Notes: generated from the sequence alone by a model not told the origin. 52,031 nt of DNA from Pseudomonadota bacterium (GCA_022572685.1 JACZVL010000003.1:1-52031); one strand, 5' to 3'; counted from the first letter of the stretch, positions 2,693-45,502 are shown. Numbers and translations are program-made.

Positions 2693-2709
2693 AACCAAGG
2701 ATCAAAGGA

Positions 2710-3597: not shown

Positions 3598-3864
3598 GGA
3601 TGTCAGCCTCGCGGATCGATCGGAAGGGTGCGGCGGGGGGCCGGGCCGTTGTCGGCCGGAAGCGGCCGGACCGGGATGTTATACCAAAGGTCCCTGATAT
3701 TGACCCATGGAGACGGTTTTCCAAGGTTTTCGGCCCGCGAGGCGTGTTTTCCCGCTGGATCAAAGACCTTGAAGGAAATCGCCGGTTCTGGCACCGTAGC
3801 GCCCTGTGATTTCGGCACGATAATCAGAATCTGCCTCAAGGAGGCACATAGCAGGGAGAGTCCG

Positions 3865-5103: not shown

Positions 5104-5137
5104 GCGGCCGGTAAACGGATTTCCGACCCATGAGACC

Positions 5138-5176
5138 CCGCCGGCGGCCTCCGCGTTTCGCGGAGGCCGCCGGCGG
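5138..5176 (+). terminator. Perfect 18-bp GC-rich hairpin after the SBP gene (mRNA stabiliser or partial terminator)
   Basis: CCGCCGGCGGCCTCCGCG-TTT-CGCGGAGGCCGCCGGCGG; no U-tract follows. Confidence 0.6.
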
Positions 5177-5228
5177 ACCTCGTGAAAATCACATCTTTTC
5201 CATGACCGGGACGCGGGCGGGGTAGAGC

Positions 5229-7708: not shown

Positions 7709-8466
7709 CCAATCTGGTGGTCACGAACCTGAACAAGCGCTTCGGCGGGCTCCACGTTCTCAAGGACGTCAACTTCGAGATCAACGGGCCGGAGCTGATC
7801 GGCCTGATCGGGCCCAACGGCGCCGGCAAGACGACCGTGACCAACATCCTGGACGGCGCGATCAAGCCCAACAGCGGCACGGTCTATCTGAACGGCCAGC
7901 GCATCGACCAGCTCCAGCCCTACCAGGTGGCGCGCGCGGGCCTGGGCCGGACCTTCCAGGTGACCCGTTCGTTCCGGCGCATGTCCGTGCTCGATAACCT
8001 CTTCGTGCCGGCGCTGGCGCTCAACCGCGGCAACAGCCGGGCCGAGATCGAAGAGAAGGCCATGGAGGTGCTCGAGTTCCTGACCATGGCGCACCTGCGC
8101 AACGAATATGCCCGGGCGCTGTCCGGCGGCCAGCAGAAGCTGCTCGAGCTCGGCCGCCTGCTGATGCTCGACCCGGAGGTGATCATCCTCGACGAGCCCT
8201 TCGCCGGCGTGCACCCGCAGCTCATGAAAGTCATCTACAGCTACATAGAGCGGGTCAACGACGCCGGCACGGCGATCATCCTGATCAGCCACCAGATGGA
8301 CTCGATCTTCACCCTGTGCCGGCGCCTGCTGGTGCTCAACTACGGCGATTTGATCGCCGACGGCGTGCCCGACGACGTCAAGCGCGACCCCGCCGTGATC
8401 GAGGCCTATCTGGGAGTCGAGGAAGAAGACACCGGCGCCGGGAAAGGGGGCCGGGCCCAGCCATGA
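7705..8466 (+). CDS. LivG-family ABC ATP-binding protein
   Basis: Walker A GPNGAGKT, RTFQ, LSGGQ, LDEP, VIEAYLG. Confidence 0.92.
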   Translation: MTNLVVTNLNKRFGGLHVLKDVNFEINGPELIGLIGPNGAGKTTVTNILDGAIKPNSGTVYLNGQRIDQLQPYQVARAGLGRTFQVTRSFRRMSVLDNLFVPALALNRGNSRAEIEEKAMEVLEFLTMAHLRNEYARALSGGQQKLLELGRLLMLDPEVIILDEPFAGVHPQLMKVIYSYIERVNDAGTAIILISHQMDSIFTLCRRLLVLNYGDLIADGVPDDVKRDPAVIEAYLGVEEEDTGAGKGGRAQP

Positions 8467-9197
8467 CCGAAGCGACTTCGGAAGCCCGGGTCATTCTCGA
8501 GATCAGCGATCTTGACGTTGGCTACTACAAGGACCTGAACATCATTCAGGGCCTCAATATCAAGGCCCGCGAGAACCAGATCACCGCGATCCTGGGGGCC
8601 AACGGGGTCGGCAAGTCGACCGCGCTCAAGGCGATGTTCGGTTTCCTGCGCCCCAACGCGGGCGAGATCCTGCTCGATGGCGAAAGCATCCTCGAGGTCC
8701 CGACCTACGAGAGGATTCTCAAGGGCCTGGCCTACATCCCGCAGCAGCCGGGCGTGTTCAAGGACATGTCCGTCGAGGAGAACCTGCAGCTCGGCGGCTG
8801 GACCTTCCGGCGCAACAAGAAGCTGGTCCGCGAAAAGATGGAGGCCAACTACGAGCGCTTCCCGGCGCTGCGCGACAAGCGCAAGCAGATCACCGGCGAG
8901 CTCTCCGGCGGCCAGCAACGCATGGTCGAGATCAGCCGCACCCTGATGGCCGATCCCAAGATGCTGCTGATCGACGAACCCACGGCGGGCCTGTCCAAGA
9001 TGCTGGCCGAGGAAGTCTACGAGATGCTGACCGTGCTGACCTCGCGGGACAACCTGACCATCCTGATCGTCGACCAGGAGATTCGTCAGGCCCTCAAGAT
9101 TTCCGACTACGTCTACGTGCTCGAACTCGGCCGCAACAAGTTCGAGGGCGCGCCGTCGGATTTCGACGACCTGGAAAAAGCCTTCTGGGTCGGCTGA
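8463..9197 (+). CDS. LivF-family ABC ATP-binding protein
   Basis: ATGA overlap; GANGVGKST, LSGGQQRM, IDEPTAGL. Confidence 0.92.
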   Translation: MTEATSEARVILEISDLDVGYYKDLNIIQGLNIKARENQITAILGANGVGKSTALKAMFGFLRPNAGEILLDGESILEVPTYERILKGLAYIPQQPGVFKDMSVEENLQLGGWTFRRNKKLVREKMEANYERFPALRDKRKQITGELSGGQQRMVEISRTLMADPKMLLIDEPTAGLSKMLAEEVYEMLTVLTSRDNLTILIVDQEIRQALKISDYVYVLELGRNKFEGAPSDFDDLEKAFWVG

Positions 9198-9319
9198 GCC
9201 GCGGGGCCGGGGAGCGACCCCGCGCCCATGGACCCACCCGATCCAATCGACCCGATCGCGCACTTGGATATCGGGGTGGTAACGACCCCCTCCGGCGTTC
9301 GGGACCAGGATCGCCGCGG

Positions 9320-10084
9320 CTACCCCAAGGCCGCCCGCAACAGGCCGGCGGTGGCGAGGAAGATCAGCAGGATCAGGGTGAAGCGGCGGAACGACCGTGG
9401 CGAGGTCTTGAGGAAGTGCCGGTTGCCGAGCCAGACGCCGAGGAACAGCGGGATACAGAACAGCGCCGTGCGCAGCAGCACCTCTTGGGTGACCAGGCCG
9501 TTGATCCAGGCCACGCCGGTGCCGTAGATATCGGCGATCATCAGGTAGACGATCAGCGTCGCCCGCGAGGTCGCGATCGCGGCGGCGCTATAGAGGAAGA
9601 ACAGGACCACCGGCAGGCCGCCGACCGCGGCGGCGCCGTTGGCGATGCCCGAGGCCACGCCGGTGCCTAAAATTGTCGGCCCGCCCGGTCGGGAGCCGGC
9701 TTGCGCGCCGCGCCAAATGAGCGCGCAGGCGAGCAGCACCAAGAGCGAGATCACCACGCGCATGACATCGGCCGGCAACGCCGCCAGCAGCGCGAAGCCG
9801 GCCGGCATGCCGAGCGCCGCCCCGGTCAGCAGCCATGCCATGGTGCGCCAGGGCACGTCCTTCCAGACCTGGGCGAGCAGGCCGAGGCTGGCGGCGATTT
9901 CGAGCAGCAGCGAGATCGGCACGACCTCGGCCGGCGGCAAGACGAGCGTCAGGCTGGTCACGATCAGCGCCGAGGCGCCGAAGCCGCTGTAGCCGCGCAC
10001 CACGGCCGCGGCGAAGACCACGACCAGCGCGTAGGCCAGGGTCGGCGCGTCCAGTCCGGCGAAAATCTGCGGTGCCGAGTCCAC
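9320..10084 (-). CDS. TauE/SafE-family sulfite/sulfonate exporter
   Basis: Hydrophobic 254 aa with VRGYSGFG and second-repeat G.A.G.AAVGG.P motifs. Confidence 0.8.
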   Translation of the reverse strand: MDSAPQIFAGLDAPTLAYALVVVFAAAVVRGYSGFGASALIVTSLTLVLPPAEVVPISLLLEIAASLGLLAQVWKDVPWRTMAWLLTGAALGMPAGFALLAALPADVMRVVISLLVLLACALIWRGAQAGSRPGGPTILGTGVASGIANGAAAVGGLPVVLFFLYSAAAIATSRATLIVYLMIADIYGTGVAWINGLVTQEVLLRTALFCIPLFLGVWLGNRHFLKTSPRSFRRFTLILLIFLATAGLLRAALG

Positions 10085-10287
10085 CGCGATTTATACCAGG
10101 GATCAGGCGACCGTGTAGTCCTTGTACTTGTCCAACAGGCGCACCGGCTGTTTCAGCGCCTCGCGGCGGAAGGTCGTTCGCATGCCCGCGAAGCCGGGGC
10201 CCGATTGCAGGGACGGGCCGGACTTGTTACCAATTCACGCAACTTATCCATCCAGGCAATTGAAACCCACGAGGGACCTCTCGAATA

Positions 10288-11157
10288 ATGACCAAAGTCG
10301 CCTTCATCGGCCTCGGGGTCATGGGCTACCCCATGGCCGGACACCTCAAGAACGGGGGCCACGACGTCACCGTCTACAACCGCACCGCCGCCAAGGCGGA
10401 GAAATGGGTCGCCGAGTACGGCGGCGCCTCGGCCCCGAGCCCGCGCGAGGCGGTCACGGGCGTCGAGATCGCCTTCTCCTGCGTCGGCAACGACGCCGAT
10501 CTGCGCTCGGTGGTGCTGGGTGAGGACGGCATCCTGGCCGGGCTCGGCTCGGGCAAGATCTTCGTCGACCACACCACCGCCTCGGCCGATGTGGCGCGCG
10601 AGATCTTCGGGCTCGCCAAGGACCGGGGCGTGGGCTTCATCGACGCACCGGTCTCCGGCGGCCAGGCCGGCGCCGAGAACGGCGTGCTCACGGTGATGTG
10701 CGGGGGCGAGCAGGCACCCTTCGACAGCGCCCAGCCGGTCATCGACTGCTACGCGCGGGCCTGCACTCTGATGGGACCGGTGGGCTCGGGCCAGTTGACC
10801 AAGATGGTCAACCAGATCTGCATCGCCGGGCTGGTTCAGGGCCTGTCCGAGGGCATGAACTTCGGCGCCAAGGCGGGTCTCGACATGGACCTGGTGATCG
10901 ACGTGATCTCCAAGGGCGCGGCCCAGTCCTGGCAGATGGAGAATCGCGCCAAGACCATGTGCGCGGGCAAGTTCGACTTCGGCTTCGCGGTCGACTGGAT
11001 GCGCAAGGACATGTCGATCTCGCTCGCCGAGGCCAAGAAACACGGCGCACGCCTGCCGGTCGCGGCGCTGGTCGACCAGTTCTACGCCCAGGTCCAGGCG
11101 CGCGGCGGCCAGCGCTGGGACACCTCCAGCCTGATGCACCTCTTGGCCAACGACTGA
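10288..11157 (+). CDS. NAD(P)-dependent 3-hydroxyacid dehydrogenase (3-hydroxyisobutyrate/tartronate semialdehyde reductase family)
   Basis: FIGLGVMGYPMAGHL, DAPVSGGQAGA, catalytic K in TKMVNQ. Confidence 0.92.
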   Translation: MTKVAFIGLGVMGYPMAGHLKNGGHDVTVYNRTAAKAEKWVAEYGGASAPSPREAVTGVEIAFSCVGNDADLRSVVLGEDGILAGLGSGKIFVDHTTASADVAREIFGLAKDRGVGFIDAPVSGGQAGAENGVLTVMCGGEQAPFDSAQPVIDCYARACTLMGPVGSGQLTKMVNQICIAGLVQGLSEGMNFGAKAGLDMDLVIDVISKGAAQSWQMENRAKTMCAGKFDFGFAVDWMRKDMSISLAEAKKHGARLPVAALVDQFYAQVQARGGQRWDTSSLMHLLAND

Positions 11158-11292
11158 ACGGCGCGCCTCCGGGGAGGGGCGGATCGCTCGGCGGGGGCAA
11201 GGGTCGGAGTGCGGCCAGTTGCGATTATGATTAGTAGTGTTATTATTCTTCCGTTCTACCATAGGTAACAATGCGTAGGCGGGGGATTGAAT

Positions 11293-11574
11293 ATGTCGTG
11301 TGAAACTAGAACTTTCACCCAAAGCTACTGGACTGTTTGTTGGAAGTGGATCTTTCCCTATCCGTGCAAGAAATACAGAACCGTCACCAAATGGTGCTGT
11401 GACTTCACCTGGATCAAGGAATCGAGATGGTTCTTTTTCTGTACGCTGGAGGGCTGCGCAGGCGGTCAACTGTATAAATGGACCGGTTTCTGCTTTCTTC
11501 TGCTCGGGTCGGTCTACTTCTACAATGTGACCAAGTGCTTTGACTCTCCTAAGACGTCCCAAGGGAAATGCTGA
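11293..11574 (+). CDS. Small Cys/Trp/Phe-rich hypothetical protein (93 aa, 10 Cys)
   Basis: RBS-like GGGGGA 6 nt before ATG; fills an AT-richer intergenic gap; strongly non-random composition. Confidence 0.7.
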   Translation: MSCETRTFTQSYWTVCWKWIFPYPCKKYRTVTKWCCDFTWIKESRWFFFCTLEGCAGGQLYKWTGFCFLLLGSVYFYNVTKCFDSPKTSQGKC

Positions 11575-11624
11575 GTAGAGGTTCGCGGCCGGGGGTCACA
11601 AGAGGAGCCGGGCAGATCGATTAG

Positions 11625-12458
11625 CTAGCGCTCCGCTGCCTTCACCGCTTGCCAGGCGTCCTCGAGCTCGGCGAGGCTGGCCTCGGTCAGCTCGCGCCCC
11701 GCGTCGGCATAGCGCGCCTCGATGGCCTGGAAGCGGCGGGTGAACTTGGCATTGGCGTGACGCAGCGCGGCCTCGGGATCGGTGTCCAGGTGGCGCGCCA
11801 GGTTGGCCAGGGCGAACAGCAGGTCGCCGAGCTCGTCGGTCACCCGGTCCGATGGCGAGCCGTCGCGGATTTCTTGTTTTAGTTCAACTATTTCTTCCTC
11901 GATCTTGTCAAGGACCGGCAGCAGTTCGGGCCAGTCGAAACCGACCCGGGCGGCGCGCCGCTGCAGCTTGACCGCACGGGTCAGCGCCGGCAGGCCCAGG
12001 GCGATGCCGTCGAGCACGCTGGCCCGGCCACTCTCCGCCGCCTGGGCCTGGCGCTCGGCCGCCTTGTGGTCCTCCCAGGCCCGGGTCTGGGCCGCCACCG
12101 AGTCGACGTCCTCGGCGCCGAACACGTGGGGGTGGCGGCGCACCATCTTGTCGGAGATCGCGGCCGCCACGGCGGCGAAGTCGAAGTCGCCGTCCTCCTC
12201 GGCCATGCGCGCGTGGTAGACCACCTGGAGCAGCAGGTCGCCGAGTTCGTCCCGCAGTGCCTTCTTGTCGCCCCGTGCGATCGCATCGGCGACCTCGTAG
12301 GCCTCCTCGATGGTGTAGGGCGCGATGGTCTCGAAGCTCTGCTCGAGGTCCCAGGGGCAGCCGGTGTCCGGGTCGCGCAGCCGGGCCATGACCTCGATCA
12401 GGCGCAGCATGGCGGCGCCAGGGGGGGCAGGGGTGGGGATCGACCGATCATGGGACAT
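11625..12458 (-). CDS. mazG: Nucleoside triphosphate pyrophosphohydrolase MazG
   Basis: LRDP.TGCPWD.EQ, EEAYEV, ELGDLL twice, RRHPHVF, VGFDW. Confidence 0.95.
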   Translation of the reverse strand: MSHDRSIPTPAPPGAAMLRLIEVMARLRDPDTGCPWDLEQSFETIAPYTIEEAYEVADAIARGDKKALRDELGDLLLQVVYHARMAEEDGDFDFAAVAAAISDKMVRRHPHVFGAEDVDSVAAQTRAWEDHKAAERQAQAAESGRASVLDGIALGLPALTRAVKLQRRAARVGFDWPELLPVLDKIEEEIVELKQEIRDGSPSDRVTDELGDLLFALANLARHLDTDPEAALRHANAKFTRRFQAIEARYADAGRELTEASLAELEDAWQAVKAAER

Positions 12459-12615
12459 GGCGCGCAAGCAGCATAGAGGCCGTGACCGGACCGGCCAAGG
12501 GGCAGCCGGGCCTCCTTGGCGGTAACTGTTGCGGCGCGGTATCATCCCCTCTAGTCTTTGAGGTATCTCGGAAATATGGATGACGGGGGCCGAGGTTCCC
12601 GGAATTTGGGAGACC

Positions 12616-14739
12616 ATGACGGAAGGTTCCGCAACGACCTCGATCGACGGGCCGTCGGGCCCGCGCCTCATGGTGATCGGGCTCGGCGGCGCTGGCGGCA
12701 ACGCGGTCGACAACATGATTCGCGCCAAGCTCGACGGCGTCGATTTTCTGGTCGCCAACACCGACGCCCAGGCGCTGGAACAGTCGCAATGCGAGCACCG
12801 GGTGCAGCTCGGCCGGGGCGTGACCCGGGGCCTGGGGGCGGGGTCCCGGCCCGACGTCGGGCGCGCCGCGACGGAGGAGGCGCTCGACGAGGTGCTCGGC
12901 GCCCTCGAGGGCGCGCATATGCTGTTCATCACCGCCGGCATGGGCGGCGGCACCGGCACCGGCGGCTCTCCGGTGATCGCCCAGGCCGCGCGCGAGGCCG
13001 GAATCCTGACCGTCGGCGTGGTGACCAAGCCGTTCCACTTCGAGGGCATCCGGCGCATGCGCCTGGCCGAGGCCGGCATCATCGAGCTCGGCAAGCAGGT
13101 CGACACCCTGATCGTGATCCCGAACCAGAACCTGTTCCGGGTGGTCGACGAGAAGACCACCTTCGCCGATGCCTTCCGGATCGCGGACGAGGTGCTGCAC
13201 TCGGGCGTGCGCGGGGTCACCGACCTGATGGTCATGCCCGGCCTCATCAATCTGGACTTCGCCGACATCCAAACGGTCATGGCCGAGATGGGCAAGGCGA
13301 TCATGGGCACCGGCGAGGCCGAAGGCGCCAACCGCGCGCTCGAGGCGGCCGAGGCGGCGATCTCCAATCCGCTGCTCGACGACGTCTCGATGAAGGGCGC
13401 GCGCGGGGTCTTGGTCAACATTTCCGGCGGCATGGACCTGACGCTGTTCGAGGTCGATCAGGCGGCCAATCGGATCCGCGAGGAGGTCGATAGCGAGGCC
13501 AATATCATCTTCGGTTCGGTCTTCGACCCGCGCCTAGAGGGGCGCATGCGGGTCTCCGTGGTCGCGACCGGGATCGAGGCGGAGGCGCAGGAGGCGCAGC
13601 CCCGCTCGGTAGCGCTCAGCCTGATCGTCAGCCGCAGCCGAGACGAGGCGGCGGCCGAGGAGCCGGCGGCGGCGGTGGCGCCGGACCGCGAATCCGCGGC
13701 GGCGCCATCTCCGGAACCGAAGGCCGAGGCGAAGCTCGAGCCGGCACCGGAACCGGAACCGGCGCCATTTTCGAGAGTCGATTCCACCGCGGACAAGGCC
13801 GACGGCGCGGCGGCGGCGTCCGGTGGCGCGACATCTCCCGAAAAGGGGCGCGAAACCGGGATGGAACCCGCGGCCCAGGGCGGCGGCACGGCCTTTAAGG
13901 AGATTCGCGACGACGACGCGGAAGGGCCGCACACCGCGACGCCGCCGGCGGGGGACGGTACCGTGGTCGACATCGCGACCCCCACCATGCCCCAGGCCAA
14001 ATCGAAGCGGTTGTTCGGGCCCACCCCGAATCCCGCCCCGAAACCCGCCCCGAAACCCGCGCCGACGAACGCCACACCGGCCGCAGCCACACCGGCTGAA
14101 GCCGCGCCACCTCCGAATCTGGCGCCGGCTACCGCGCCCGATACGGAGTCCGATACGGAGTCCGGCACGGAGGTCGGCGCCGGGTCGGAGCCCGAACCCG
14201 AACCCAAGAAGCGGCGCGCCGGCGGGCTGTTTTCCTGGATTGCCGGGCGAGGCGGCGCCGGCGCGGAGGAGAACTTCGAAAAGGGCGATCGCCATTACTA
14301 CGGCCAGGGCGTGCGCAAGAACCTGACCTTGGCCCTGCGCGCCTACCGCAAGGCCGCGGAACAGGGGCACGCGCCGGCGCAGAACCGGCTCGGCTGGATG
14401 TACGAAAAGGGCGAGGGCACCGAGGCGGACTACGCCGAAGCGGTGACCTGGTACCAACGGGCCGCCGAGCAGGGCCACATCAACGCCATGAACGACCTCG
14501 GCTACATGCACCGCCAAGGTTGGGGCGTGCCGCAGAGCTATTCGGAGGCCTTGCGCTGGTTCCGCGACGCGGCCGAGAAATACGACAGCTACGCCGAGTA
14601 CAACATGGGCCAGATGTACGAGAACGGCTGGGGCGTGGAGAAAGACCTGGACGAGGCCATCCGGTGGTTCCGCCGCTCGGCCGCGCGCGGCCACGAATGG
14701 GCCGCCAAGCGACTCGAGGAGATGGGTGTCCGAACCTGA
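12616..14739 (+). CDS. ftsZ: FtsZ GTPase domain + Pro/Ala/Glu-rich linker + C-terminal SEL1 repeats (FtsZ paralog)
   Basis: [32 protein letters not shown]7 loop GLINLDFAD; C-terminal SEL1 repeats; RBS GGGAG before 12616 (alternative start 12580). Confidence 0.9.
14263..14720 (+). repeat. About four SEL1-like (TPR-family) protein repeats
   Basis: A.N.LG.MY..G.G...D..EA..W...AAEQG pattern repeated at about 36-aa spacing. Confidence 0.9.
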
Positions 14740-36254: not shown

Positions 36255-36407
36255 TCGGCCGACCCGCGCCACGCCCGTAATCTCCATCACGATGTGAACT
36301 CTCCATGATGAGCTGACAGGAAGACGACATACCGGCATGAGGCGCTGCGGGAGCGATATGCCGGCGGGGGGAGCCTGCGCGCAGGCATCTTTCGAGAGGG
36401 GAATTTC

Positions 36408-36899
36408 ATGGAAAAAGCCTTCTTTCTTTTGTTCGCGGCCGTGGCCATCGGATCGGGGTTATTGGTCATTACGGCGAGAAACCCGATTCACAGCGCCCTT
36501 GCGCTCATAGTCAGCCTCGTTCAAGTGGCCGCGATCTTCGTTCTTCTCGGATCGCCCTTCCTCGCAGCCATCCAGATCTTCGTTTACGTGGGCGCTGTGA
36601 TGGTCCTGTTCCTGTTCGTGATCATGATGCTCGACGTCCGCAAGGAGGCGCGCACCAGGTTTCTCGAAAAGGGGATCGCGCCGACGCTGGCCGTCCTGGT
36701 TCTTCTTGGCGGTCAAATGATTGCCCTTTTGCTGGGCAGCCAGCGCTTTCCGGTGCGCTCCGCTGGCGCCGCGGGCAGCCTTAAGGAATTGAGCAAGGCC
36801 CTTTTCACCGACTACCTTCTTCCCTTCGAGGTCGTCTCCGTCATCCTTCTGGTCGCCCTGGTCGGGGCCATCGTTCTGGCGAGAAAGGAAACCGATTGA
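36408..36899 (+). CDS. nuoJ: NADH-quinone oxidoreductase subunit J
   Basis: [41 protein letters not shown]. Confidence 0.95.
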
Positions 36900-37201
36900 T
36901 GGTCCCGCTGTCGTGGTATCTCGTGCTTGGCGCGGTTCTGTTCGTGACCGGCGCGGCGGGCGTTGTGCTGCGGCGCAACGTGCTCATTGTGCTGATGTCG
37001 CTGGAATTGATGCTCAATTCGGTGAGCGTCAACCTCGTTGCCTTCTCTCATTTCTTTGGCGATTTCCGTGGCCAGATCATCGCCATTTTCGTGATCGCCA
37101 TTACCGCCGCCGAGGTCGCCATTGCCCTGGGAATCCTGGTCGCCCTGGTGCGCAATAAGGCCACTCTCGAGGTCGACGAAGTGACGATAATGAAGGGATA
37201 G
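36899..37201 (+). CDS. nuoK: NADH-quinone oxidoreductase subunit K
   Basis: RRN....[18 protein letters not shown]. Confidence 0.95.
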
Positions 37202-37205
37202 CGGG

Positions 37206-38696
37206 TTGGAAGTCGTCCATTCGATCAAACCCATCCTGGCCATCGCGGTTTCGCTGCTGGCCGCCGGGGCCATCCTGGGGTTCCGCGATCGCGCCAACCT
37301 CAGGGACTCGGTGTCCCTGATCGCGGCGGTCGTCAAATTCCTGATCATCATTTCCATGGCGCCCATCGTGCTTGGCGGGGGAACCATCGAGATCACCCTG
37401 TTCGAGATCCTGCCGGGCGTCGAGTTCGCGTTTCGGGTGGACGCGTTGGGAATGGTGTTCGCAACCATTTCGTCGATGCTGTGGATCGCCGCCGCGGTCT
37501 ACTGCATCGGCTATATGCGAAGCCTGAAGGAACACGCTCAGACGCGGTTCTTCGCCGCTTTCGCCGTAAGTCTGTCGGCGGCCGTCGGCGGGGCCTTTGC
37601 CGCCAACCTGTTCACGCTGGTGATCTTCTACGAGGTCCTCAGCCTCGTCACCTATTCGCTGGTCTATCACCGGGAGAACGAAGATTCCTGGCACGGCAGC
37701 CGGCGGTACCTGGTCTACCTGGTCGGCGCGTCCAAGACCTTCCTGCTTGCCGGTCTGGCGCTCACCTACCAATTGACGGGGACGCTGGATTTCATGCCGT
37801 CCGGGCTGTTCGACGGGGTCGCCGCCTCGCCGCTGCTGCTGAGCGTCGTCTACTTCTGTTACCTGGCGGGTTTCGCCAAGGCGGCCATCATGCCCATGCA
37901 TGCCTGGCTGCCCGCGGCGATGGTCGCGCCGACGCCGGTCAGTGCGCTGCTGCATGCAGTGGCGGTGGTCAAGATGGGCGTGTTCTGCGTGCTCCGCGTG
38001 GTCTTCCACGTGATGGGGGTGGGGCTGATGGACGACCTGGGCCTGGGAATCGCCACCGCTTACCTGGTCTCCTTCACCATCATCACGGCCTCGATTTACG
38101 CGCTGACGCGAGATGATCTGAAAGCGCGCCTCGCCTATTCCACCATTAGCCAGTTGTCCTACATCATCCTCGGCGCGGTGCTGCTCACGCCGACCGCCAT
38201 CGTCGGCGGTGTCGTCCATATCGCCGCCCACGCGCTGTCCAAGATCACGCTCTTTTTCTGTGCCGGCTCCATCTATTGCGCGTCACGCCGCAAGAACGTC
38301 AGTGAACTCGCCGGAATCGGGCGCAGGTTGCCGTGGACCATGGCAGCCTTTTTCATCGCCTCGCTCGGCATGATCGGGGTCCCGCCTACGGGTGGATTCA
38401 TCAGCAAATGGTACCTGGTGCTGGGATCGGTAGAAGCGGGAGAACTGGTCTTCCTGGCGGTTCTGCTGGTGAGTACCGTGCTCAACGCCGCCTACTTCCT
38501 GCCGGTGACCTACACCGCCTTCTTCGAGAAGGAAAAAACCGGTCCGGTGGGCGACGGCCCCGATAAAATCCATCCCGACGATATCCGGGAGATTCCCCTG
38601 GTTACCATTCCCCTGGTGGTCACGGCGCTGCTGTCCGTGGTCTTGGGGATCTTCCCCGATTACTTCCTCACCCTGGCGCGGGGGATCGTGCCATGA
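37206..38696 (+). CDS. MrpD-like antiporter subunit (proton-pumping module, no NuoL tail)
   Basis: FYEVL, KAAIMPMHAWLPAAMVAPTPVSALLHAVAVVK, LAYSTISQ, H..SKITLFF.AG; TTG start. Confidence 0.85.
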   Translation: MEVVHSIKPILAIAVSLLAAGAILGFRDRANLRDSVSLIAAVVKFLIIISMAPIVLGGGTIEITLFEILPGVEFAFRVDALGMVFATISSMLWIAAAVYCIGYMRSLKEHAQTRFFAAFAVSLSAAVGGAFAANLFTLVIFYEVLSLVTYSLVYHRENEDSWHGSRRYLVYLVGASKTFLLAGLALTYQLTGTLDFMPSGLFDGVAASPLLLSVVYFCYLAGFAKAAIMPMHAWLPAAMVAPTPVSALLHAVAVVKMGVFCVLRVVFHVMGVGLMDDLGLGIATAYLVSFTIITASIYALTRDDLKARLAYSTISQLSYIILGAVLLTPTAIVGGVVHIAAHALSKITLFFCAGSIYCASRRKNVSELAGIGRRLPWTMAAFFIASLGMIGVPPTGGFISKWYLVLGSVEAGELVFLAVLLVSTVLNAAYFLPVTYTAFFEKEKTGPVGDGPDKIHPDDIREIPLVTIPLVVTALLSVVLGIFPDYFLTLARGIVP

Positions 38697-38947
38697 TCGG
38701 GCGGATCGTCCGCTTCTTCGGGGATGCCGAGCAGGCCAAGCGGCGGCGCTGGCTGCTCGCCGCCACGCTACTGGCCGTCTTCGTCGCCGACTTCTTCGTC
38801 GCCAGGGAGCACGTCGTCTTCTTCTGGGACGCCATCTCCGGGTGGGCGGCGCTGTTCGGCTTCCTCTCCTGCGTCGCCATCATCTTCATCAGCAAGGCTC
38901 TGGGTCGCCAAGGGCGGCTCATGCGGCGCGAGGACTACTATGACTGA
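38693..38947 (+). CDS. Small two-TM membrane protein (84 aa)
   Basis: Two hydrophobic segments, ends LMRREDYYD; overlaps both neighbouring genes. Confidence 0.8.
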   Translation: MIGRIVRFFGDAEQAKRRRWLLAATLLAVFVADFFVAREHVVFFWDAISGWAALFGFLSCVAIIFISKALGRQGRLMRREDYYD

Positions 38948-40703
38948 CTGGGTTCATCCCGGGCTGCTGTTCGTCGTCGGCGCCTTGCCGATCCCCTGGC
39001 TCAGCGGACGCCCGCGCCAGGCTTGGCTGATCCTGGTTCCGGTGCTCGCCATCGCCAACATGGCGACCCTGGTACCCGGAGACTACGGCGCCTTCGATTT
39101 CGCCGGCGTGGCGCTCCTGGTCGGCAAGGTCGACAAGCTCAGCTTGGTGTTCGCCTGGGTCTTCACCATCATGGCGTTGATCGGCACGGTTTACGCGCTG
39201 CACGTCCGGCGGCCCGAGCAGCATGTGGCCGCGTTCCTGTACGTGGGCAGCGCGCTCGGCGTGGTCTTCGCCGGCGATTGGTTTACCCTCCTGGTGTCCT
39301 GGGAGATCATGGCCTTCGCCTCCGCTTATCTGATCTTCGCGGCGGCGGAGGCGCCGGCCGTGCGTGCCGCGTTCCGCTACCTCATGGTCCATGTCACGGG
39401 CGGCGTCCTGCTGTTCGGCGGGATCGTCCTCCACGGCGTGGCGACGGGGTCCTTTCTGTTCGGCCCGTTGGGTGAGGAGGGCGGGCTCGCCTACACGCTG
39501 ATCCTGGTGGCCTTTATGCTCAACGCGGCGGTGCCACCCCTCAACGCCTGGCTCACCGACGCCTATCCCGAGGCCACGGTCACCGGTGCCGTTTTCCTGA
39601 GCGCCTTTACCACCAAGACCGCGGTCTACGTGCTGATCCGGGCCTATCCGGGTGCCGAGATTCTGGTGTGGCTGGGTTCGATCATGGCCATTTACGGTGT
39701 CGTCTACGCGGTGCTGGAGAACGATACCCGGCGCCTTCTGGCTTATCATATCGTAAGCCAGGTCGGCTACATGGTCGTCGGTGTGGGCATCGGCACCGAG
39801 ATGGCCCTCAACGGTTCCGCCGCCCACGCCTTCGCCCACATCTTCTACAAGGGACTGCTGTTCATGGGTGCGGGCGCGGTCATCTACATGACCGGGCGGC
39901 GCAAGCTGACCGAGCTGGGCGGGCTCTACCGGACCATGCCGGTGACGGTGTTCCTCTACATGATCGGTGCCTTCGCTATCTCGGCCTTTCCCTTGTTCAG
40001 CGGCTTCGTCAGCAAATCCATGGTCATCGCCGCGGCCGCCGGGGACCAACGGGCGGCCGTCGTGTTGATGCTCACCGTTGCCTCCTCAGGCACCTTCCTG
40101 CACACCGGGCTGAAGCTTCCCTACTACATGTTTTTCGGCAAGGACTGCGGATTGCGTCCCGCGGAGCCGCCACTCAACATGCTGATTGCCATGGGATTGG
40201 CGGCCGTGCTGTGTATCGGCATCGGGATATTCCCCGGCGTGCTTTACGCCCTGTTGCCCTACCCGGTCGATTTTGCGCCTTATACCGGCGCCCACATCAC
40301 CGGCAGTCTCGGCATCCTGATGTTCACGCTGCTGGGCTTCGTGGTGTTTCTGAAAGCCCTCGACCCCGAACAGACCATCAGCCTCGACACCGACTGGTTC
40401 TACCGCAAGGGCGCCCGGCTGTTCATGTGGTTCGCCGAGAAACCGGTGGCGCGCTGGGAAGGGGCGGTCAGTGCGCTGTCCGACACGGTGGTGCTGAGGG
40501 TTCTCCATGCTTCGGCGCGGGGCGGCCTCCTGGTCGATCTGCACGTAGTGGACGCCATCGTCAACGGTGTGGCACGGACCGCTTTGGCCTGGGGTGCGAC
40601 CGTCCGGCGTCTGCAAACCGGGATCGTGAGCCATTACGCCGCGGCCATGATCGGCGGCGTGCTGACAGGCATGGCCGTCTATGTGGTGTTCTGGGCCGGC
40701 TGA
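38940..40703 (+). CDS. MrpD/MrpA-like antiporter subunit with NuoL-type C-terminal lateral helix
   Basis: WEIMA, AWLTDAYPEAT.TG, AFTTK, LLAYH.VSQVG, YKGLLFM; tail DWFY...VVDAIVNGV...RRLQTG.V.HY. Confidence 0.85.
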   Translation: MTDWVHPGLLFVVGALPIPWLSGRPRQAWLILVPVLAIANMATLVPGDYGAFDFAGVALLVGKVDKLSLVFAWVFTIMALIGTVYALHVRRPEQHVAAFLYVGSALGVVFAGDWFTLLVSWEIMAFASAYLIFAAAEAPAVRAAFRYLMVHVTGGVLLFGGIVLHGVATGSFLFGPLGEEGGLAYTLILVAFMLNAAVPPLNAWLTDAYPEATVTGAVFLSAFTTKTAVYVLIRAYPGAEILVWLGSIMAIYGVVYAVLENDTRRLLAYHIVSQVGYMVVGVGIGTEMALNGSAAHAFAHIFYKGLLFMGAGAVIYMTGRRKLTELGGLYRTMPVTVFLYMIGAFAISAFPLFSGFVSKSMVIAAAAGDQRAAVVLMLTVASSGTFLHTGLKLPYYMFFGKDCGLRPAEPPLNMLIAMGLAAVLCIGIGIFPGVLYALLPYPVDFAPYTGAHITGSLGILMFTLLGFVVFLKALDPEQTISLDTDWFYRKGARLFMWFAEKPVARWEGAVSALSDTVVLRVLHASARGGLLVDLHVVDAIVNGVARTALAWGATVRRLQTGIVSHYAAAMIGGVLTGMAVYVVFWAG

Positions 40704-40720
40704 GGGAAGCGGAACCAGCC

Positions 40721-42193
40721 ATGACGGATTTCCCCATCCTCAGCCTCATCATCTTCCTGCCCGCGGGCGGCGCCGGCGTGCTGCTGTTGGTGCGCGGCGA
40801 CGCGGCCGTGCGCTGGACGGCCCTTGTGTTCGCCGTCGCCGACTTCCTGCTCACGATACCGCTGCTGTTGGCCTTCGATACGACCACCTATGCCATGCAG
40901 TTCCGCGAGACCGCCGCTTGGGTGCCGGCGCTCGGAATCTCTTATTCCCTCGGCGTCGACGGGATCAGCGTGCTGTTTGTGTTCCTGACCGCGCTTCTGG
41001 GCTGGATCTGCGTCGTCGTGTCGTGGCGGGCCATCGACAGCAAGGTCAAGGAGTTCATGATCAGCCTCCTGGTCATGCAGAGCCTGATGCTCGGCGTCTT
41101 TTGTGCGCTGGACCTGTTTCTTTTCTATGTTTTCTGGGAAGCGATGCTGATCCCGATGTACCTCATCATTGGCGTCTGGGGCGGCGATAACCGGGTCTAT
41201 GCGGCGTTCAAGTTCTTCCTCTACACGCTGGCGGGCAGCATGCTGTTCCTGGTCGGCATCCTGGTGTTGTATTTCCAGGGTGGGGAGACCTTCGACATTC
41301 TTGTCCTTATGGAGCAGACCTATCCTTTCGAGATTCAGGCATGGGTGTTCGTGGCCTTTCTGATCGCCTTCGCGGTGAAGGTGCCCATGGTGCCGCTGCA
41401 TACATGGCTGCCCGACGCCCATGTGCAGGCGCCGACGGCAGGCAGCATCGTGCTCGCCGGGGTGCTGCTCAAGATGGGGGCCTACGGCTTCCTGCGCTTT
41501 TCGCTGCCCATGTTGCCCGAGGCCTCGCACGCCTTCGCGCCCTTCATCCTCGTCCTGTCCGTGGTGGCGATCATCTATGGCGGCTTCCTGGCTCTGGCTC
41601 AAGACGACCTGAAGAAGCTGGTCGCCTATGCGAGTGTCAGCCACATGGGCTTCGTGACCCTGGGGCTGTTCACGTTCAACGCCAAGGGGGTCGAGGGCGC
41701 CGTGCTGCAGATGTTCAATCACGGCATCACGACGGGGGCCCTGTTCTTGTTTGTCGGCCTGATCTACGAGCGCACCCACACGCGGCGGATCGCCGATTAC
41801 GGTGGTTTGATGAAGGTGGTGCCGGTCTACGGCGTGCTGCTGGCCGTATTCACCTTGTCCGCCATGGCCGTGCCGGGCACCAACACCTTCGTCGGCGAGT
41901 TGCTGGTGCTGTCGGGCGCGTTCGGCGCCAACAAGGCCATCGGCGCCGTCGCCGTGGCCGGCGCGGTGCTCAGCGCCGCCTACCTGCTGAGGATGTTCCG
42001 CCAGATGGCGCTGGGCCCGGCTGTCCCCATCGGCGGGCGCCAGTTGTGGGATGTCAACGCGCGGGAGATGGCGGCGATCCTGCCCCTGGTGGTCTTCGTC
42101 TTCTGGGTCGGGTTTTACCCCAAACCCTTCCTCGAAATCATACGTGTGTCCGTCGAACACCTGCTCGTGCAGACCCAGGTTCAGGGCCGCTGA
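40721..42193 (+). CDS. nuoM: NADH-quinone oxidoreductase subunit M
   Basis: LGVDGIS, FWEAMLIPMY, KFFLYT, KVPMVPLHTWLPDAHVQAPT, LKMG.YG, YERTHTR. Confidence 0.95.
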   Translation: MTDFPILSLIIFLPAGGAGVLLLVRGDAAVRWTALVFAVADFLLTIPLLLAFDTTTYAMQFRETAAWVPALGISYSLGVDGISVLFVFLTALLGWICVVVSWRAIDSKVKEFMISLLVMQSLMLGVFCALDLFLFYVFWEAMLIPMYLIIGVWGGDNRVYAAFKFFLYTLAGSMLFLVGILVLYFQGGETFDILVLMEQTYPFEIQAWVFVAFLIAFAVKVPMVPLHTWLPDAHVQAPTAGSIVLAGVLLKMGAYGFLRFSLPMLPEASHAFAPFILVLSVVAIIYGGFLALAQDDLKKLVAYASVSHMGFVTLGLFTFNAKGVEGAVLQMFNHGITTGALFLFVGLIYERTHTRRIADYGGLMKVVPVYGVLLAVFTLSAMAVPGTNTFVGELLVLSGAFGANKAIGAVAVAGAVLSAAYLLRMFRQMALGPAVPIGGRQLWDVNAREMAAILPLVVFVFWVGFYPKPFLEIIRVSVEHLLVQTQVQGR

Positions 42194-42205
42194 GGGGAGA
42201 CGCCG

Positions 42206-43657
42206 ATGGACATGAACGCGGTCATCCGGTCGGTCATCGCCAGTGGGCCCGAGATCATCGTCATTGTCGGCGCCTGCGTGCTGCTGATGGTCGGGCTCGT
42301 CGCCGAGAAGCGGTATGGCCGGCTGCTCGTCGGGGCGACGTTGGCGGTGGTGATTGCCGCCGCGGCCGCGACCTTCGCCCTGGCCGGGGCGCCGCGCACG
42401 GCCTATGGCGGCATGTTCGTCATCGACGACTTCGCGATCTTTTTCAAACTCGTGCTCTATCTGGCCACCGGGCTCACCGTGCTGATGTCCGGCCGCTACC
42501 TGGAGGAGGAAGCGATCGCCCGCAGCGAATATTACGCGCTGCTGCTGTTCGCGCTGTCCGGCATGATGATCATGGTCTCGGGGCTCGACCTGTTGACCAT
42601 CTACGTCGGCCTCGAGCTCCAGTCGTTGTCCCTCTATGTGCTCACCGGATTTTTTCGTCACGACCCACGCTCCAACGAGGCGGCGTTGAAGTACATCATC
42701 CTCGGCGCGGTTTCCTCGGGGATCTTCCTCTACGGCCTGTCCCTGGCTTACGGCCTCACCGGCACCACCCAGTTGACGGACATGGCCACCGCCCTGGCCC
42801 ACGGCCGGGCGACCGATCCGGCGCTGATCCTCGCCACCATCTTCCTGGTCACGGGGCTGATCTTCAAGGTCGGCGCGGTGCCCTTCCACATGTGGGTCCC
42901 CGACGTCTACGAAGGCGCGCCGACGACCATCACCGCCTTCCTGTCGGTGGCGTCGAAGGCCGCCGCCTTTGCCATCGTGCTGCGCATCTTTCTCGATGCC
43001 CTCGCGCCGGTCACCGAAATCTGGACCGTCCTCGTCGCGGTGATTGCGGTGCTGACCATAGCCTTGGGCAGTTTCGTCGCCCTGGTCCAGACCAACATCA
43101 AGCGGATGCTGGCCTATTCGAGCATCGCGCACGCCGGCTTCGCGCTGCTGGGCCTGGTCGCCGGAGGACCCGACGGGGTCGCCAGCGTCATGCTCTACCT
43201 GCTGATCTATACCTTCATGAACCTCGGCATCTTCGGCACCGTGGTCATGATGCGAAAGGGCGACGTCCGCGGTGATATGATCGCGGACTATACCGGCTTC
43301 GCCAAGACCCACCGGGGCTTGGCCCTGCTGATGCTGATCTTCCTGTTCTCGCTGGCCGGCATCCCGCCGACCGCGGGCTTTTTCGCCAAGTTCTACGTTT
43401 TGGTCGCGCTGATCAATCAGGGTTACGTGGCCCTCGCGGTGATCGCCGTGCTCCTGAGTGCCGTGGCCGCCTTTTTCTACATCCGCATCGTGATGCTGAT
43501 GTACATGAGGGAGCCGACCCGGTCCTTCGATCTGGCGCTCACACCGTCCCTACGCCTGGTCCTCGCCATCGCCGGGCTGGGGACGGTGGGTATCGGTATC
43601 CTTCCTTCTTGGTTCCTCGATTTGGCCCAGGGGGCTATTCTAACCGTGATGCGTTGA
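42206..43657 (+). CDS. nuoN: NADH-quinone oxidoreductase subunit N
   Basis: LELQSL, EAALKY, FKVGAVPFHMWVPDVYEGAPT, KRMLAYSSI.H.G, SLAGIPP. Confidence 0.95.
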   Translation: MDMNAVIRSVIASGPEIIVIVGACVLLMVGLVAEKRYGRLLVGATLAVVIAAAAATFALAGAPRTAYGGMFVIDDFAIFFKLVLYLATGLTVLMSGRYLEEEAIARSEYYALLLFALSGMMIMVSGLDLLTIYVGLELQSLSLYVLTGFFRHDPRSNEAALKYIILGAVSSGIFLYGLSLAYGLTGTTQLTDMATALAHGRATDPALILATIFLVTGLIFKVGAVPFHMWVPDVYEGAPTTITAFLSVASKAAAFAIVLRIFLDALAPVTEIWTVLVAVIAVLTIALGSFVALVQTNIKRMLAYSSIAHAGFALLGLVAGGPDGVASVMLYLLIYTFMNLGIFGTVVMMRKGDVRGDMIADYTGFAKTHRGLALLMLIFLFSLAGIPPTAGFFAKFYVLVALINQGYVALAVIAVLLSAVAAFFYIRIVMLMYMREPTRSFDLALTPSLRLVLAIAGLGTVGIGILPSWFLDLAQGAILTVMR

Positions 43658-44082
43658 CGAACTGGAGTGTTGGCCCCCAAAGGGGCATGGTCTCGACTCT
43701 TGGATAGGGCGCGCGCCGCAACCCGGGCGCCTATGACTCGGCGGTCGGTTTGGCTGCCGCCGTGGGAAAATCGAAGGCGCGGGTGCGGCACTCCCGGCGC
43801 CCGGTTGCGGCAATCGGGGGCCGTCGTCTATTGACCGTGGTGTAGACGGCGGCGTGAATCGACAAGAAACGTGGAGCGGAGCGCACAGTTGACGGCAAGC
43901 AAAATTGGTGAGAATCCCGTTGCACCGACATCATTGGTGCCAACCGGCACATGTCCCCAAGCAAGTTGTCGTTATGTTCCGTGACCATTGATGCTATAGT
44001 ATGACGAACCTGCGCCGGCGTGGCCCGCCGAGAGCGGTCCCGGCGTGAAGCTTCTCGGTAGACAGGAGGCGGATCGACGAAG

Positions 44083-44445
44083 ATGCCTATCGACTACCTT
44101 CCGGTGTTCCTGATGGTGAGTGCGGTCTCCGTCCTGGCCCTGGTGATACTTTTCGTATCGTCGCTGGTGCGCCCCTCCAATCCCTATCCCGAGAAGAATC
44201 GCCCCTACGAGTGCGGAGTCGACCATTGGGGTGAAGCCTCGGCGGGACTGTTCAAGGTCCACTACTTCGTCATCGCTATCCTGTTCGTGGTCTTCGAAGT
44301 GGAAACCATGTTCCTGTTTCCCTGGGCCGTGGTCCTCGGGGACATCGGCTTGTTCGGCTACATCGAGATGTTCGTGTTCATCTTCCTGTTGTTGGTGGGT
44401 TTCGTTTATGCCTGGTTGAAGGGAGCACTGGATTGGGAGCACTAG
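44083..44445 (+). CDS. nuoA: NADH-quinone oxidoreductase subunit A
   Basis: RBS AGGAGG; [28 protein letters not shown]. Confidence 0.95.
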
Positions 44446-44936
44446 AGAACCGTTTCCCCGACAACGTCTTTTTCAGCACCGCGGACAGCCTCATCAACTG
44501 GGGGCGGAAGTCCGCTCTGTGGCCTGAGACCTTCGGGATCGCCTGCTGCGCCATCGAGATGATTGCGGCCGGATGTTCCCGTTACGACCTGGACCGTTTC
44601 GGCATCGTGTTCCGGTCCTCGCCCAGGCAGTCGGATGTGATGATCATCGCGGGCACGGTGACCAAGAAGTTCGCCCCCGTCGTCCGGCGCCTCTTCGACC
44701 AGATGCCCGAGCCGCGCTGGGTCATCGCCATGGGGACCTGCGCGATTTCCGGCGGTGTGTACAATACCTACGCCGTGGTCCAGGGCTCGGATCTGATCGT
44801 TCCCGTGGACGTGCACGTCCCCGGCTGTCCGCCCCGGCCCGAGGCCCTCATGCACGGCTTCGTCCTGCTTCAGGAGAAGATCCAGCGGTCCCACGTGCTA
44901 CGAAGGGGCGGTCCGGTCCACGCAGTGGGGAGCTAG
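44433..44936 (+). CDS. nuoB: NADH-quinone oxidoreductase subunit B
   Basis: [38 protein letters not shown]; TTG start overlapping nuoA. Confidence 0.95.
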
Positions 44937-44938
44937 CC

Positions 44939-45463
44939 GTGGGCGGTCCGAATCTGCGCGAGAGAATCGAGCATCGTTTCGGCGGACGCGTGCGCGACGG
45001 AGGCCTCCCCCACGGGATGCAGACTTTCCTGGTCGATCCCGATCTCGTCGTCGAGTTGTGCCAGTTCTTCAAGGACGATCCGGAGCTTCGCTTCGATTTC
45101 CTGTCGGACATCTGCGGGGTCGACCACTACCCGGAGGAAGACCGGTTGGAAGTGGTCTATCACCTCTACTCCATCGCCTTCAAATGGCGGGTTCGGATCA
45201 AGTGTCGGTCCGGCGATCCGCCAAAGGTCCCCTCTGTGGTGGGCGTGTGGAGGACCGCCAATTGGCACGAGCGCGAGACCTATGACATGTACGGGATCGT
45301 GTTCGAGGGCCACCCCGATCTCCGGCGAATCTACATGTGGGATGAGTTCGAGGGATACCCCATGCGCAAGGACTTCCCGTTGCGGGGCTACAAGGATGCC
45401 TACAACCCCTTTGGCGAGGAGAGGACCGCGGCCGCGCCGTCCGACACCGGCGGCGAACGCTGA
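44939..45463 (+). CDS. nuoC: NADH-quinone oxidoreductase subunit C
   Basis: GVDHYP, ANWHERETYDMYGI.F.GHPDLRRI, PMRKDFPL; GTG start approximate. Confidence 0.93.
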   Translation: MGGPNLRERIEHRFGGRVRDGGLPHGMQTFLVDPDLVVELCQFFKDDPELRFDFLSDICGVDHYPEEDRLEVVYHLYSIAFKWRVRIKCRSGDPPKVPSVVGVWRTANWHERETYDMYGIVFEGHPDLRRIYMWDEFEGYPMRKDFPLRGYKDAYNPFGEERTAAAPSDTGGER

Positions 45464-45502
45464 CCCGCGGGCCCGGTGGCCCCCTGCAAGCGAGTGTGCG
45501 AG

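Follow-up and report, generated by a model that had tools for sequence, protein, structure and literature searches.

A second, green-type complex I operon encoding two MrpD-like subunits and an unannotated small membrane protein in a marine-sediment-associated member of the Pseudomonadota

The closest described relatives of the system considered here include variant forms of complex I, the NADH:quinone oxidoreductase (Nuo). In 2016, Degli Esposti and Martinez-Romero (FEMS Microbiol Ecol 92:fiw084; cited in PMC7415380 and PMC9040806) reportedly described a 'green' complex I of rhizobia, and Chadwick et al. (2018, ISME J 12:2668; cited in PMC6606698 and PMC9040806) are said to have described a 2M-type complex I of Nitrospira and others, with four antiporter-like subunits, a lateral helix about 26 residues longer, and an accompanying hypothesis of a fifth proton and of reverse electron flow. 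The system in question is a nuo operon on a 52,031-nucleotide (nt) stretch of DNA from a member of the Pseudomonadota (GCA_022572685.1, JACZVL010000003.1:1-52031; hereafter the window, from whose first letter all positions are counted), and it encodes the host's second NADH:quinone oxidoreductase, one that belongs to the green type known from earlier work. The passages of Lindström & Mousavi (2019; PMC7415380) used here place a second operon of peculiar gene order in about 70 Alphaproteobacteria, mainly Rhizobiaceae, and say that it is reported to be up-regulated in symbiosis; those of PMC3382624 state that the 'NuoL' of the pSymA cluster best matches cation/H+ antiporter subunits. In the part of their article drawn on here, Yu et al. 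(2022; PMC9040806) cite the 2016 study and report that 'Ca. Manganitrophaceae' have a relative with five pumps and with 26 residues inserted into the lateral helix of its MrpD2, and the corresponding part of PMC7784846 describes a 'group 3 Mrp' operon type with two extra NuoM/NuoL-like genes after mrpD. A full-text search turned up no biochemical or structural study of green complex I among the papers that it covered, and no solved structure was close to the first of the two MrpD-like subunits described below (best match MbhH, 138 bits).

The reading that we favor, with a probability of about 0.7, is that the window encodes a green-type complex I in which a three-gene cassette, here called D1-S-D2, replaces NuoL, that its four pumps lie in one membrane arm, and that it was acquired horizontally. 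The operon is intact (nuoHIJK-D1-S-D2-nuoMN, then nuoABCDEFG; Table 1), includes the NADH-oxidising module nuoEFG, and has no internal stops in D1, S, D2, nuoM or nuoN. A preliminary description of this DNA had listed nuoK, an MrpD-like gene, a small transmembrane open reading frame (ORF), a further Mrp-like gene, nuoM and nuoN in that order, and ORFs were found at each of the positions that it gave. The genes are closely spaced, with 4 nt between nuoK and D1, overlaps of 4 nt between D1 and S and of 8 nt between S and D2, 17 nt between D2 and nuoM, and a gap of 425 nt between nuoN and nuoA. In particular, the four antiporter-like subunits counted earlier all carry the PF00361 core in Pfam (D1 8.4e-50, D2 2.9e-39, NuoM 5.1e-81 and NuoN 1.3e-80). 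The exchange of NuoL for two Mrp-like proteins is borne out by NF006236 ('cation/H+ antiporter subunit D') and NF009310 ('Na+/H+ antiporter subunit D'), which match D1 and D2, respectively, above their cut-offs. The NuoL model TIGR01974 (cut-off 407.5) yields 180.5 bits on D1 and 140.5 on D2, and a second NuoL model, NF005141, yields 151.1 bits on D2 versus a cut-off of 556; since both proteins fall under the TIGR01974 cut-off, the operon lacks a canonical nuoL. The earlier statement that nuoL is missing holds in this sense, but D2 retains the lateral helix and anchor of NuoL, and the label 'MrpD/A-like' passes over this NuoL-type C-terminus.

As in the cluster of Ensifer adhaerens p1, the membrane-arm genes nuoJ to nuoN lie ahead of nuoA to nuoG; a canonical nuoA-N operon is also present in the host genome, on contig C141; and D1 and D2 fall into clades with Phyllobacterium, Moritella and Aromatoleum sequences at 100/100. 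At the nucleotide level, 90 rhizobial plasmid records match the region with 60-80% identity (64 Sinorhizobium, 13 Rhizobium, 10 Ensifer, 2 Phyllobacterium and 1 Pararhizobium), and in five cases the match extends over 80% or more of the query. The similarity to Sinorhizobium meliloti pSymA, which the preliminary description had pointed out, is confirmed by the 64 Sinorhizobium plasmids and by the account of the pSymA cluster in the passages of PMC3382624 used here. The window's proteins are 52-81% identical to those of E. adhaerens p1 (D1 73%, S 57%, D2 70%, NuoM 72% and NuoN 67%), where the gene series from nuoJ to nuoG is the same and is annotated as nuoJ, nuoK, 'antiporter subunit D family', a hypothetical protein of 84 amino acids (aa), 'Na+/H+ antiporter subunit D', nuoM, nuoN and nuoA-G; past nuoG, on the opposite strand, p1 carries a CBS gene, nuoI and nuoH. 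The observation is right, and the architecture is not new: what the window holds is green complex I as already published, and its novelty is accordingly low. The preliminary description had correctly called the layout not unique, but it underrated how well known it is, as the hypothesis on stoichiometry and reverse electron flow already appears in the part of PMC9040806 drawn on here.

Phylogenetic trees were calculated with FastTree (73 rows) and IQ-TREE (52 rows), the latter leaving out 21 rows, those from L016, L053, L063, L066, L069 and L088 together with L084_N. In the IQ-TREE calculation D1, D2, NuoM and NuoN form clades of their own at 100/100 and NuoL at 100/99, and the same five clades are separate in FastTree as well; this phylogeny, of the kind that had been proposed as a check, thus places D1 and D2 outside NuoL, NuoM and NuoN as well as outside ordinary MrpD. 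Two deeper affinities appeared and were dropped. The grouping of D2 with HyfB had a support of 96 in FastTree and of 89, then 46/55, in IQ-TREE, with a long-branch warning, and the position of D1 near NuoL, MrpA and HyfD, at 83 in FastTree, was not resolved in later trees; no placement is claimed for either.

The layout recurs widely. A scan with the D2 alignment, using one genome per species, found at least 592 relatives among 600 candidate stretches; the best 80 loci, annotated by tblastn with this genome's own subunits, were used throughout. They span several phyla, and the closest come from an Inquilinaceae metagenome-assembled genome (MAG; 87%), a Rhodospirillales MAG (77%) and Pelagibius (76%). 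There are 57 loci with a complex-I context, 18 with an Mrp context, and 5 that are too short to tell. Within the complex-I context, D1-S-D2 occur in this order at 56 of the 57 loci, so that the arrangement is not due to chance, and D2 is followed by both nuoM and nuoN at 52. Around the cassette the gene order varies: several Alphaproteobacteria have the order of the window, and rhizobia keep nuoH and nuoI apart; in Aromatoleum and Photobacterium, whose loci begin at nuoD, D1-S-D2 fills the nuoL slot of the usual order; and the Thermodesulfobacteriota have nuoABCD-HIJK-D1-S-D2-MN. At 17 of the 57 loci there is no match to nuoE and nuoF, in some cases because the locus is cut. One archaeal locus (L084, in a 'Ca. 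Syntrophoarchaeum' butanivorans MAG, 8274-11719 and downstream) reads D1-S-D2-N-B-C-D-H-I, with no nuoM.

D2 appears to be the stand-in for NuoL. It comprises an antiporter core, a fifteenth transmembrane helix (TM15, residues ~450-469), a lateral helix (~486-563) and a NuoL-like anchor helix (~565-586), and its AlphaFold2 (AF2) model has a 14-helix core, TM15 at 450-469 and a helical tail at 486-586; D1 has no lateral helix. The best-matching folds are MrpA, NdhF and NuoL (Foldseek E-values from 2e-20 to 1e-16, TM-scores of 0.70-0.75, identities of at most 25%). The host genome offers a direct comparison, as it also contains an Mrp operon, on contig C229, with paralogues of the three cassette proteins (D1', S' and D2'). 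NuoL models align to D2 as far as its C-terminus, and to the Mrp paralogue D2' only to about residue 447; likewise, the D2 tail aligns to the host's canonical NuoL with 43% identity over 49 aa (E = 2e-7), covering the helix end and the anchor, and the D2' tail gave no alignment to that protein.

Counted to the C-terminus from a conserved D[ST]DW motif, the length of the D2 tail largely follows how many pumps the helix would span. At 52 of the 54 complex-I loci, all of which continue with nuoM and nuoN, the tail measures 100-113 aa, and in L084, the one complex-I locus with nuoN only, 79 aa; in 13 Mrp-context loci it is 79, 79, 79, 79, 79, 80, 91, 94, 95, 105, 106, 106 and 108 aa. Hand counts for NuoL give about 82 aa in the host's canonical protein and about 76 aa in E. 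coli. The D2 tail is therefore some 25 residues longer than in three-pump contexts, which is the size of the insert per extra pump reported in the part of PMC9040806 drawn on here, and this agreement suggests that D2 would be the distal subunit, clamping D1, NuoM and NuoN. The three-pump archaeal relative L084, with its short tail, fits such a helix-length rule.

The third cassette protein, S, is a widespread, unannotated small-protein family. Of 54 complex-I loci, 51 have an S of 83-85 aa, 51 show an overlap of 4 nt with D1, and 52 show one of 8 nt with D2. Mrp operons retain the overlap of S with D2 at 8 of 15 loci, with a variable D1-S spacing, which indicates that S is coupled more tightly to D2. 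Across an alignment of 46 sequences, G56 and K68 are invariant and D33, W45, G50, F57, C60, I64, G71, E80, Y82 and Y83 nearly so, the last three forming a nearly invariant C-terminal E-x-Y-Y motif; the AF2 model, with a predicted local distance difference test score (pLDDT) of 84, has helices at residues 2-10, 12-34, 44-47 and 51-73. A profile search of 1.84 billion cluster representatives returned 2242 relatives at E<=1e-3 and 653 at E<=1e-10, with lengths of 43-201 aa among the 150 matches listed. S matched no family in Pfam or NCBIfam, a profile search of the PDB gave no matches at E<=1, and an atlas search found clusters of 'hypothetical protein' only. Its identity with a known small subunit was considered and rejected: profile-profile comparisons with NuoA, NuoH, NuoJ, NuoK, MrpE, MrpF, MrpG, the C-terminal part of MrpA, MrpB and MrpC, and with the C-terminal parts of NuoL, HyfB, MrpA, D1 and D2, reached a best probability of 17%, which indicates no relation. 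S is not mentioned in the part of PMC9040806 drawn on here. Nevertheless, S, the link of the cassette to group-3 Mrp operons, the NuoL-like anchor with its longer clamp, and the TM7 asparagine described below may already be in print.

According to the favored reading, four antiporter-like proteins would form a single membrane arm in the order NuoN-NuoM-D1-D2, with D2 in the distal place of NuoL, its lateral helix running back over D1, NuoM and NuoN to the anchor, and S as a small subunit attached to D2. In support of one complex, mrpE, F, G, B and C are all missing from the window, as is any further L-type gene. On thermodynamic grounds and by the hypothesis already in print, a fourth channel could bring the enzyme to about 5 ions per 2 electrons, which by standard potentials would lower the membrane potential that limits forward pumping from NADH to ubiquinone from ~205-215 mV to ~165-175 mV; a ratio raised in this way would make reverse flow from quinol to NAD+ easier.

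Several points weigh against this reading. Assembly, subunit order and stoichiometry are all inferred. Seven of the 13 Mrp-context D2 tails have 91-108 aa although only three antiporter-like genes are seen there, and pump number therefore cannot be read cleanly from the tail by itself; moreover, one complex-I locus (L074, Leisingera; D2 ORF 10001-12034, 677 aa) is an outlier whose tail of 191 aa may reflect a fusion or an error in the sequence. The AF2 monomer renders the D2 tail at 486-586 as one straight helix with a pLDDT of ~50-55, which makes it unusable for helix reach or geometry. Contigs from RNA libraries match 36800-41000 with 95-99% identity in four runs from three studies, and one of 252 nt spans S and the S/D2 junction; they hint at expression and no more, since carried-over DNA or related strains could account for them. 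Neither nifH/nitrogenase nor RuBisCO was found in the 81%-complete genome, leaving no obvious sink that would call for reverse electron flow. Lastly, D2 has an asparagine (N195) at the position of the TM7 lysine (K229 in E. coli NuoL), as do 45 of 46 D2 sequences; D2 may therefore differ from the usual proton channel, and the gain from the extra subunit need not amount to a full ion.

This last point was examined by aligning D1 and D2 to E. coli NuoL, NuoM and NuoN, with 46 sequences of each tabulated. The TM5, TM7, TM8, TM11 and TM12 positions are assigned functional roles in the complex I literature. D1 keeps them all (TM5 E143, TM7 K225, TM8 H250/K256, TM11 H338/H342/K346 and TM12 K401), and D2 keeps TM5 E122, TM8 K226, the TM11 His/His/Lys and TM12 K359; the TM5 Glu, the TM11 His/His/Lys and the TM12 Lys are invariant in both proteins, as is the TM7 Lys in D1. 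The sole TM7 Lys among the 46 D2 sequences belongs to the host's own Mrp paralogue D2'. Given the TM7 Asn, the fourth subunit should not be assumed to add simply one proton. Indeed, all four proteins might assemble with the ratio not raised, D2 serving mainly as carrier of the clamp or, with S, as a different channel (e.g. for Na+ or for leak control), and the enzyme would then still move about 4 H+ for every 2 electrons, or else exchange Na+ for H+. We regard this as unlikely, but it has in its favor the Asn in D2 where D1, NuoM, NuoN and both NuoL sequences have Lys, the conserved acidic motif DAYPE that is specific to D2 and contains an invariant E211, the nearly invariant Asp33 and the invariant Lys68 in the membrane protein S, and the source of the cassette in Na+/H+ antiporter operons. 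It sits less well with the TM5 Glu, TM8 Lys, TM11 His/His/Lys and TM12 Lys of D2, which are all invariant, and with the lack of an established Na+-binding motif for the D2 family.

D1-S-D2 is a fixed three-gene cassette common to green complex I and group-3 Mrp operons, and the host genome (an assembly of 3.23 Mb in 274 contigs, 81% complete) illustrates both settings. It has ten PF00361 genes, three on C141, four in the window and three on C229. C141 carries the full canonical nuoA-N operon, whose products are 30-53% identical to the green subunits; C229 (locus L012), at 2447-9999, carries mrpE, mrpF, mrpG, an MbhD/MbhE-like gene equivalent to the C-terminal part of MrpA, mnhB, mrpC and mrpD, followed by D1'-S'-D2'. 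These paralogues are 46% (D1'), 37% (S') and 50% (D2', residues 1-492) identical to their counterparts in the window. In a further Mrp-type locus, from a Desulfobacteria MAG (L092, 630-2658 and 8115-11770), there are two S-D2 pairs.

The occurrence of the cassette in true Mrp operons, at 18 of the best 80 loci and on C229 itself, raises an alternative under which D1, S and D2 would form a separate Mrp-like antiporter that is merely co-transcribed with a two-pump (NuoM, NuoN) complex I. The preliminary description had named such a separate antiporter as an outcome that would overturn its proposal, and the genes for MrpE, F, G, B and C were looked for in the window; none was found, these partners lying on C229. 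Beyond the missing partners, this alternative would leave the operon with no other lateral-helix subunit, and it does not explain why the D2 anchor is NuoL-like in the complex-I context only, why the position of the cassette is fixed at 56 of 57 complex-I-context loci, or why the D2 tail is about 25 aa longer where nuoM and nuoN follow. It is accordingly highly improbable. We give next to no credence to a decaying or silent second copy that has no function here, for although a complete canonical nuoA-N operon exists on C141 and the cluster has a foreign composition and an adjoining insertion sequence (IS) element, all of its 16 genes are open and full length, scoring above cut-off where a family cut-off exists, the functional residues are conserved, contigs from the RNA library of run X15 reach every one of the 30 bins into which 36800-41000 was divided (those of X16-X18 miss some), and near-identical DNA recurs in 14 runs from 7 studies.

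The green cluster was probably acquired horizontally, as judged from its composition and surroundings. The rest of the contig encodes MetRS, an FtsZ-family protein, PBP5 and a lytic transglycosylase, indicating that it is chromosomal. The G+C content (GC) of the cluster is 0.628 (34000-48000) versus 0.670 for the genome, and its GC at third codon positions is 0.81-0.88 versus 0.96 and 0.93 in canonical nuoL and the Mrp D2', respectively; an IS6-family transposase gene lies directly upstream and is a possible scar of acquisition. Green-type D2 was not found in 40 relatives searched, one of them of the same genus; in 18 of these 40, including the unpublished genome G022, there was a D2 match at 47-53% that ended near residue 495 and is of the Mrp type. 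Together, the low GC values, the adjacent IS6 element and the missing green type in the searched relatives suggest horizontal acquisition. The 14 runs with near-identical DNA are marine-sediment or marine metagenomes, one of which may be the genome's source, and the organism and its green cluster seem to be widespread in marine sediments.

Table 1. Features of the green-type cluster and its upstream flank, in window coordinates. Family evidence is given as accession with E-value or with score versus cut-off.
Feature	Coordinates	Strand	Family evidence
IS6-family transposase	33227..33877	+	PF13610 DDE_Tnp_IS240 3.1e-44
CBS-domain protein, divergent from nuoH	33936..34277	-	PF00571
nuoH	34669..35655	+	PF00146 7.5e-122; NF004741 375 bits vs cut-off 305
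nuoI	35688..36254	+	TIGR01971 156 bits vs 113
nuoJ	36408..36899	+	PF00499 6.9e-42
nuoK	36896..37201	+	PF00420 1.6e-26; NF004321 102 bits vs 91
D1, first MrpD-like antiporter subunit, 496 aa	37206..38696	+	NF006236 773 bits vs 663
S, two-helix membrane protein, 84 aa	38693..38947	+	no named family
D2, second MrpD-like subunit, 587 aa	38940..40703	+	NF009310 755 bits vs 564
nuoM, 490 aa	40721..42193	+	TIGR01972 635 bits vs 264
nuoN, 483 aa	42206..43657	+	TIGR01770 499 bits vs 333
nuoA	44083-44445	+	PF00507
nuoB	44433-44936	+	PF01058
nuoC, start uncertain	44933-45463	+	PF00329
nuoD	45476-46720	+	PF00346; TIGR01962 595 bits
nuoE	46744-47220	+	PF01257
nuoF	47253-48518	+	PF01512+PF10589
nuoG	48552-51137	+	PF13510+PF10588+PF00384

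The nuoH start in Table 1 is a chosen internal ATG in a frame that is open from 34294. A scan of 33800-52031 for promoters and terminators found 1 promoter-like and 18 terminator-like sites, which is no excess over the 3.2 and 14.7, respectively, in shuffled sequences, and no terminator-like site in the 425-nt gap between nuoN and nuoA. The CBS-domain protein encoded next to nuoH may have a regulatory role for the cluster; nuoI and nuoH of E. adhaerens p1 likewise have a CBS gene beside them. A tblastn search with it found 4 loci at E<=1e-5, including L014, L023 and L038, which was too few for the gene to be counted as part of the system. Elsewhere in the window, a 719-aa ORF at 12580-14739 (+) combines the GTPase and C-terminal domain of FtsZ with Sel1 repeats, and is either an unusual FtsZ-family architecture or two genes read together. 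At 26913-32805 (+), a 909-aa protein with an integrin-beta-like VWA domain and RTX repeats is followed by one 1043-aa frame that contains a type-I-secretion ABC transporter and an HlyD-type membrane-fusion protein, either as a fusion or through a missed stop.

The number of ions moved per electron pair in complex I and the way in which the distal pumps are driven are open mechanistic questions, and naturally occurring variants with four pumps offer a ready means of addressing them. Green complex I is confined neither to rhizobia nor to symbiosis: it occurs in many phyla and, apparently by transfer, in the marine-sediment-associated bacterium described here, and its cassette always includes the small unannotated protein S. 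A bolder extension, which is quite unlikely and put forward tentatively, is that S could be a missed core subunit wherever a D2-type pump is used, that D2, with its TM7 Asn and DAYPE motif, and S, with its Asp33, Lys68 and E-x-Y-Y tail, might form a terminal ion path distinct from the channels of NuoL, NuoM and NuoN, e.g. for Na+, and that the D2 clamp could determine by its length how many pumps are present. If so, green complex I would be a hybrid H+/Na+ machine, and three, four or five pumps would go with clamps of about 79, 104 or 130 residues, respectively. These findings are pointers for enzyme purification rather than a discovery in themselves, and they add no new architecture.

Compared with rhizobial green complex I, the system in the window has the same two MrpD-like genes and 84-aa ORF between nuoK and nuoM, the same NuoEFG, a canonical nuo operon alongside and an adjoining CBS gene; it differs in that nuoH and nuoI, which are convergent past nuoG on p1 and pSymA, here lie upstream on the same strand, and in its host, a non-rhizobium with a 3.2-Mb genome in which the cluster is on a chromosomal contig and no nitrogenase was found. 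Group-3 Mrp operons have the same D1-S-D2 order, the 8-nt S/D2 overlap (8 of 15 loci) and the conserved residues, including the TM7 Asn in 13 of 14; however, their cassette is accompanied by MrpE, F, G, the MrpA C-terminal part, MrpB, MrpC and MrpD instead of Nuo subunits, and their D2 tail is not NuoL-like, with 79-80 aa in proteobacterial operons. Canonical NuoL and MrpA (E. coli 7z7r_L, B. pseudofirmus 7qru_A and A. flavithermus 6z16_A) have the 14-helix core, TM15, lateral helix and anchor of D2; relative to NuoL, D2 scores under the family cut-off, has Asn in place of the TM7 Lys and bears a longer tail, and, unlike canonical NuoL/MrpA, it carries Lys in TM8 as NuoM and NuoN do. In the 2M-type the extra subunit is a second NuoM beside a true, lengthened NuoL, whereas here the place is taken by D1/D2 and S: only one gene in the window passes TIGR01972, the clades of NuoM and NuoL include neither D1 nor D2, and none of the best 80 loci has a second nuoM after D2. 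Complex_I_3 of 'Ca. Manganitrophaceae', as presented in the part of PMC9040806 drawn on here, likewise replaces NuoL with two rhizobial-related MrpD-like subunits, of which MrpD2 bears the lateral helix, and goes further than the window's system by a second NuoM, for five pumps, and a further 26-aa insert in MrpD2.

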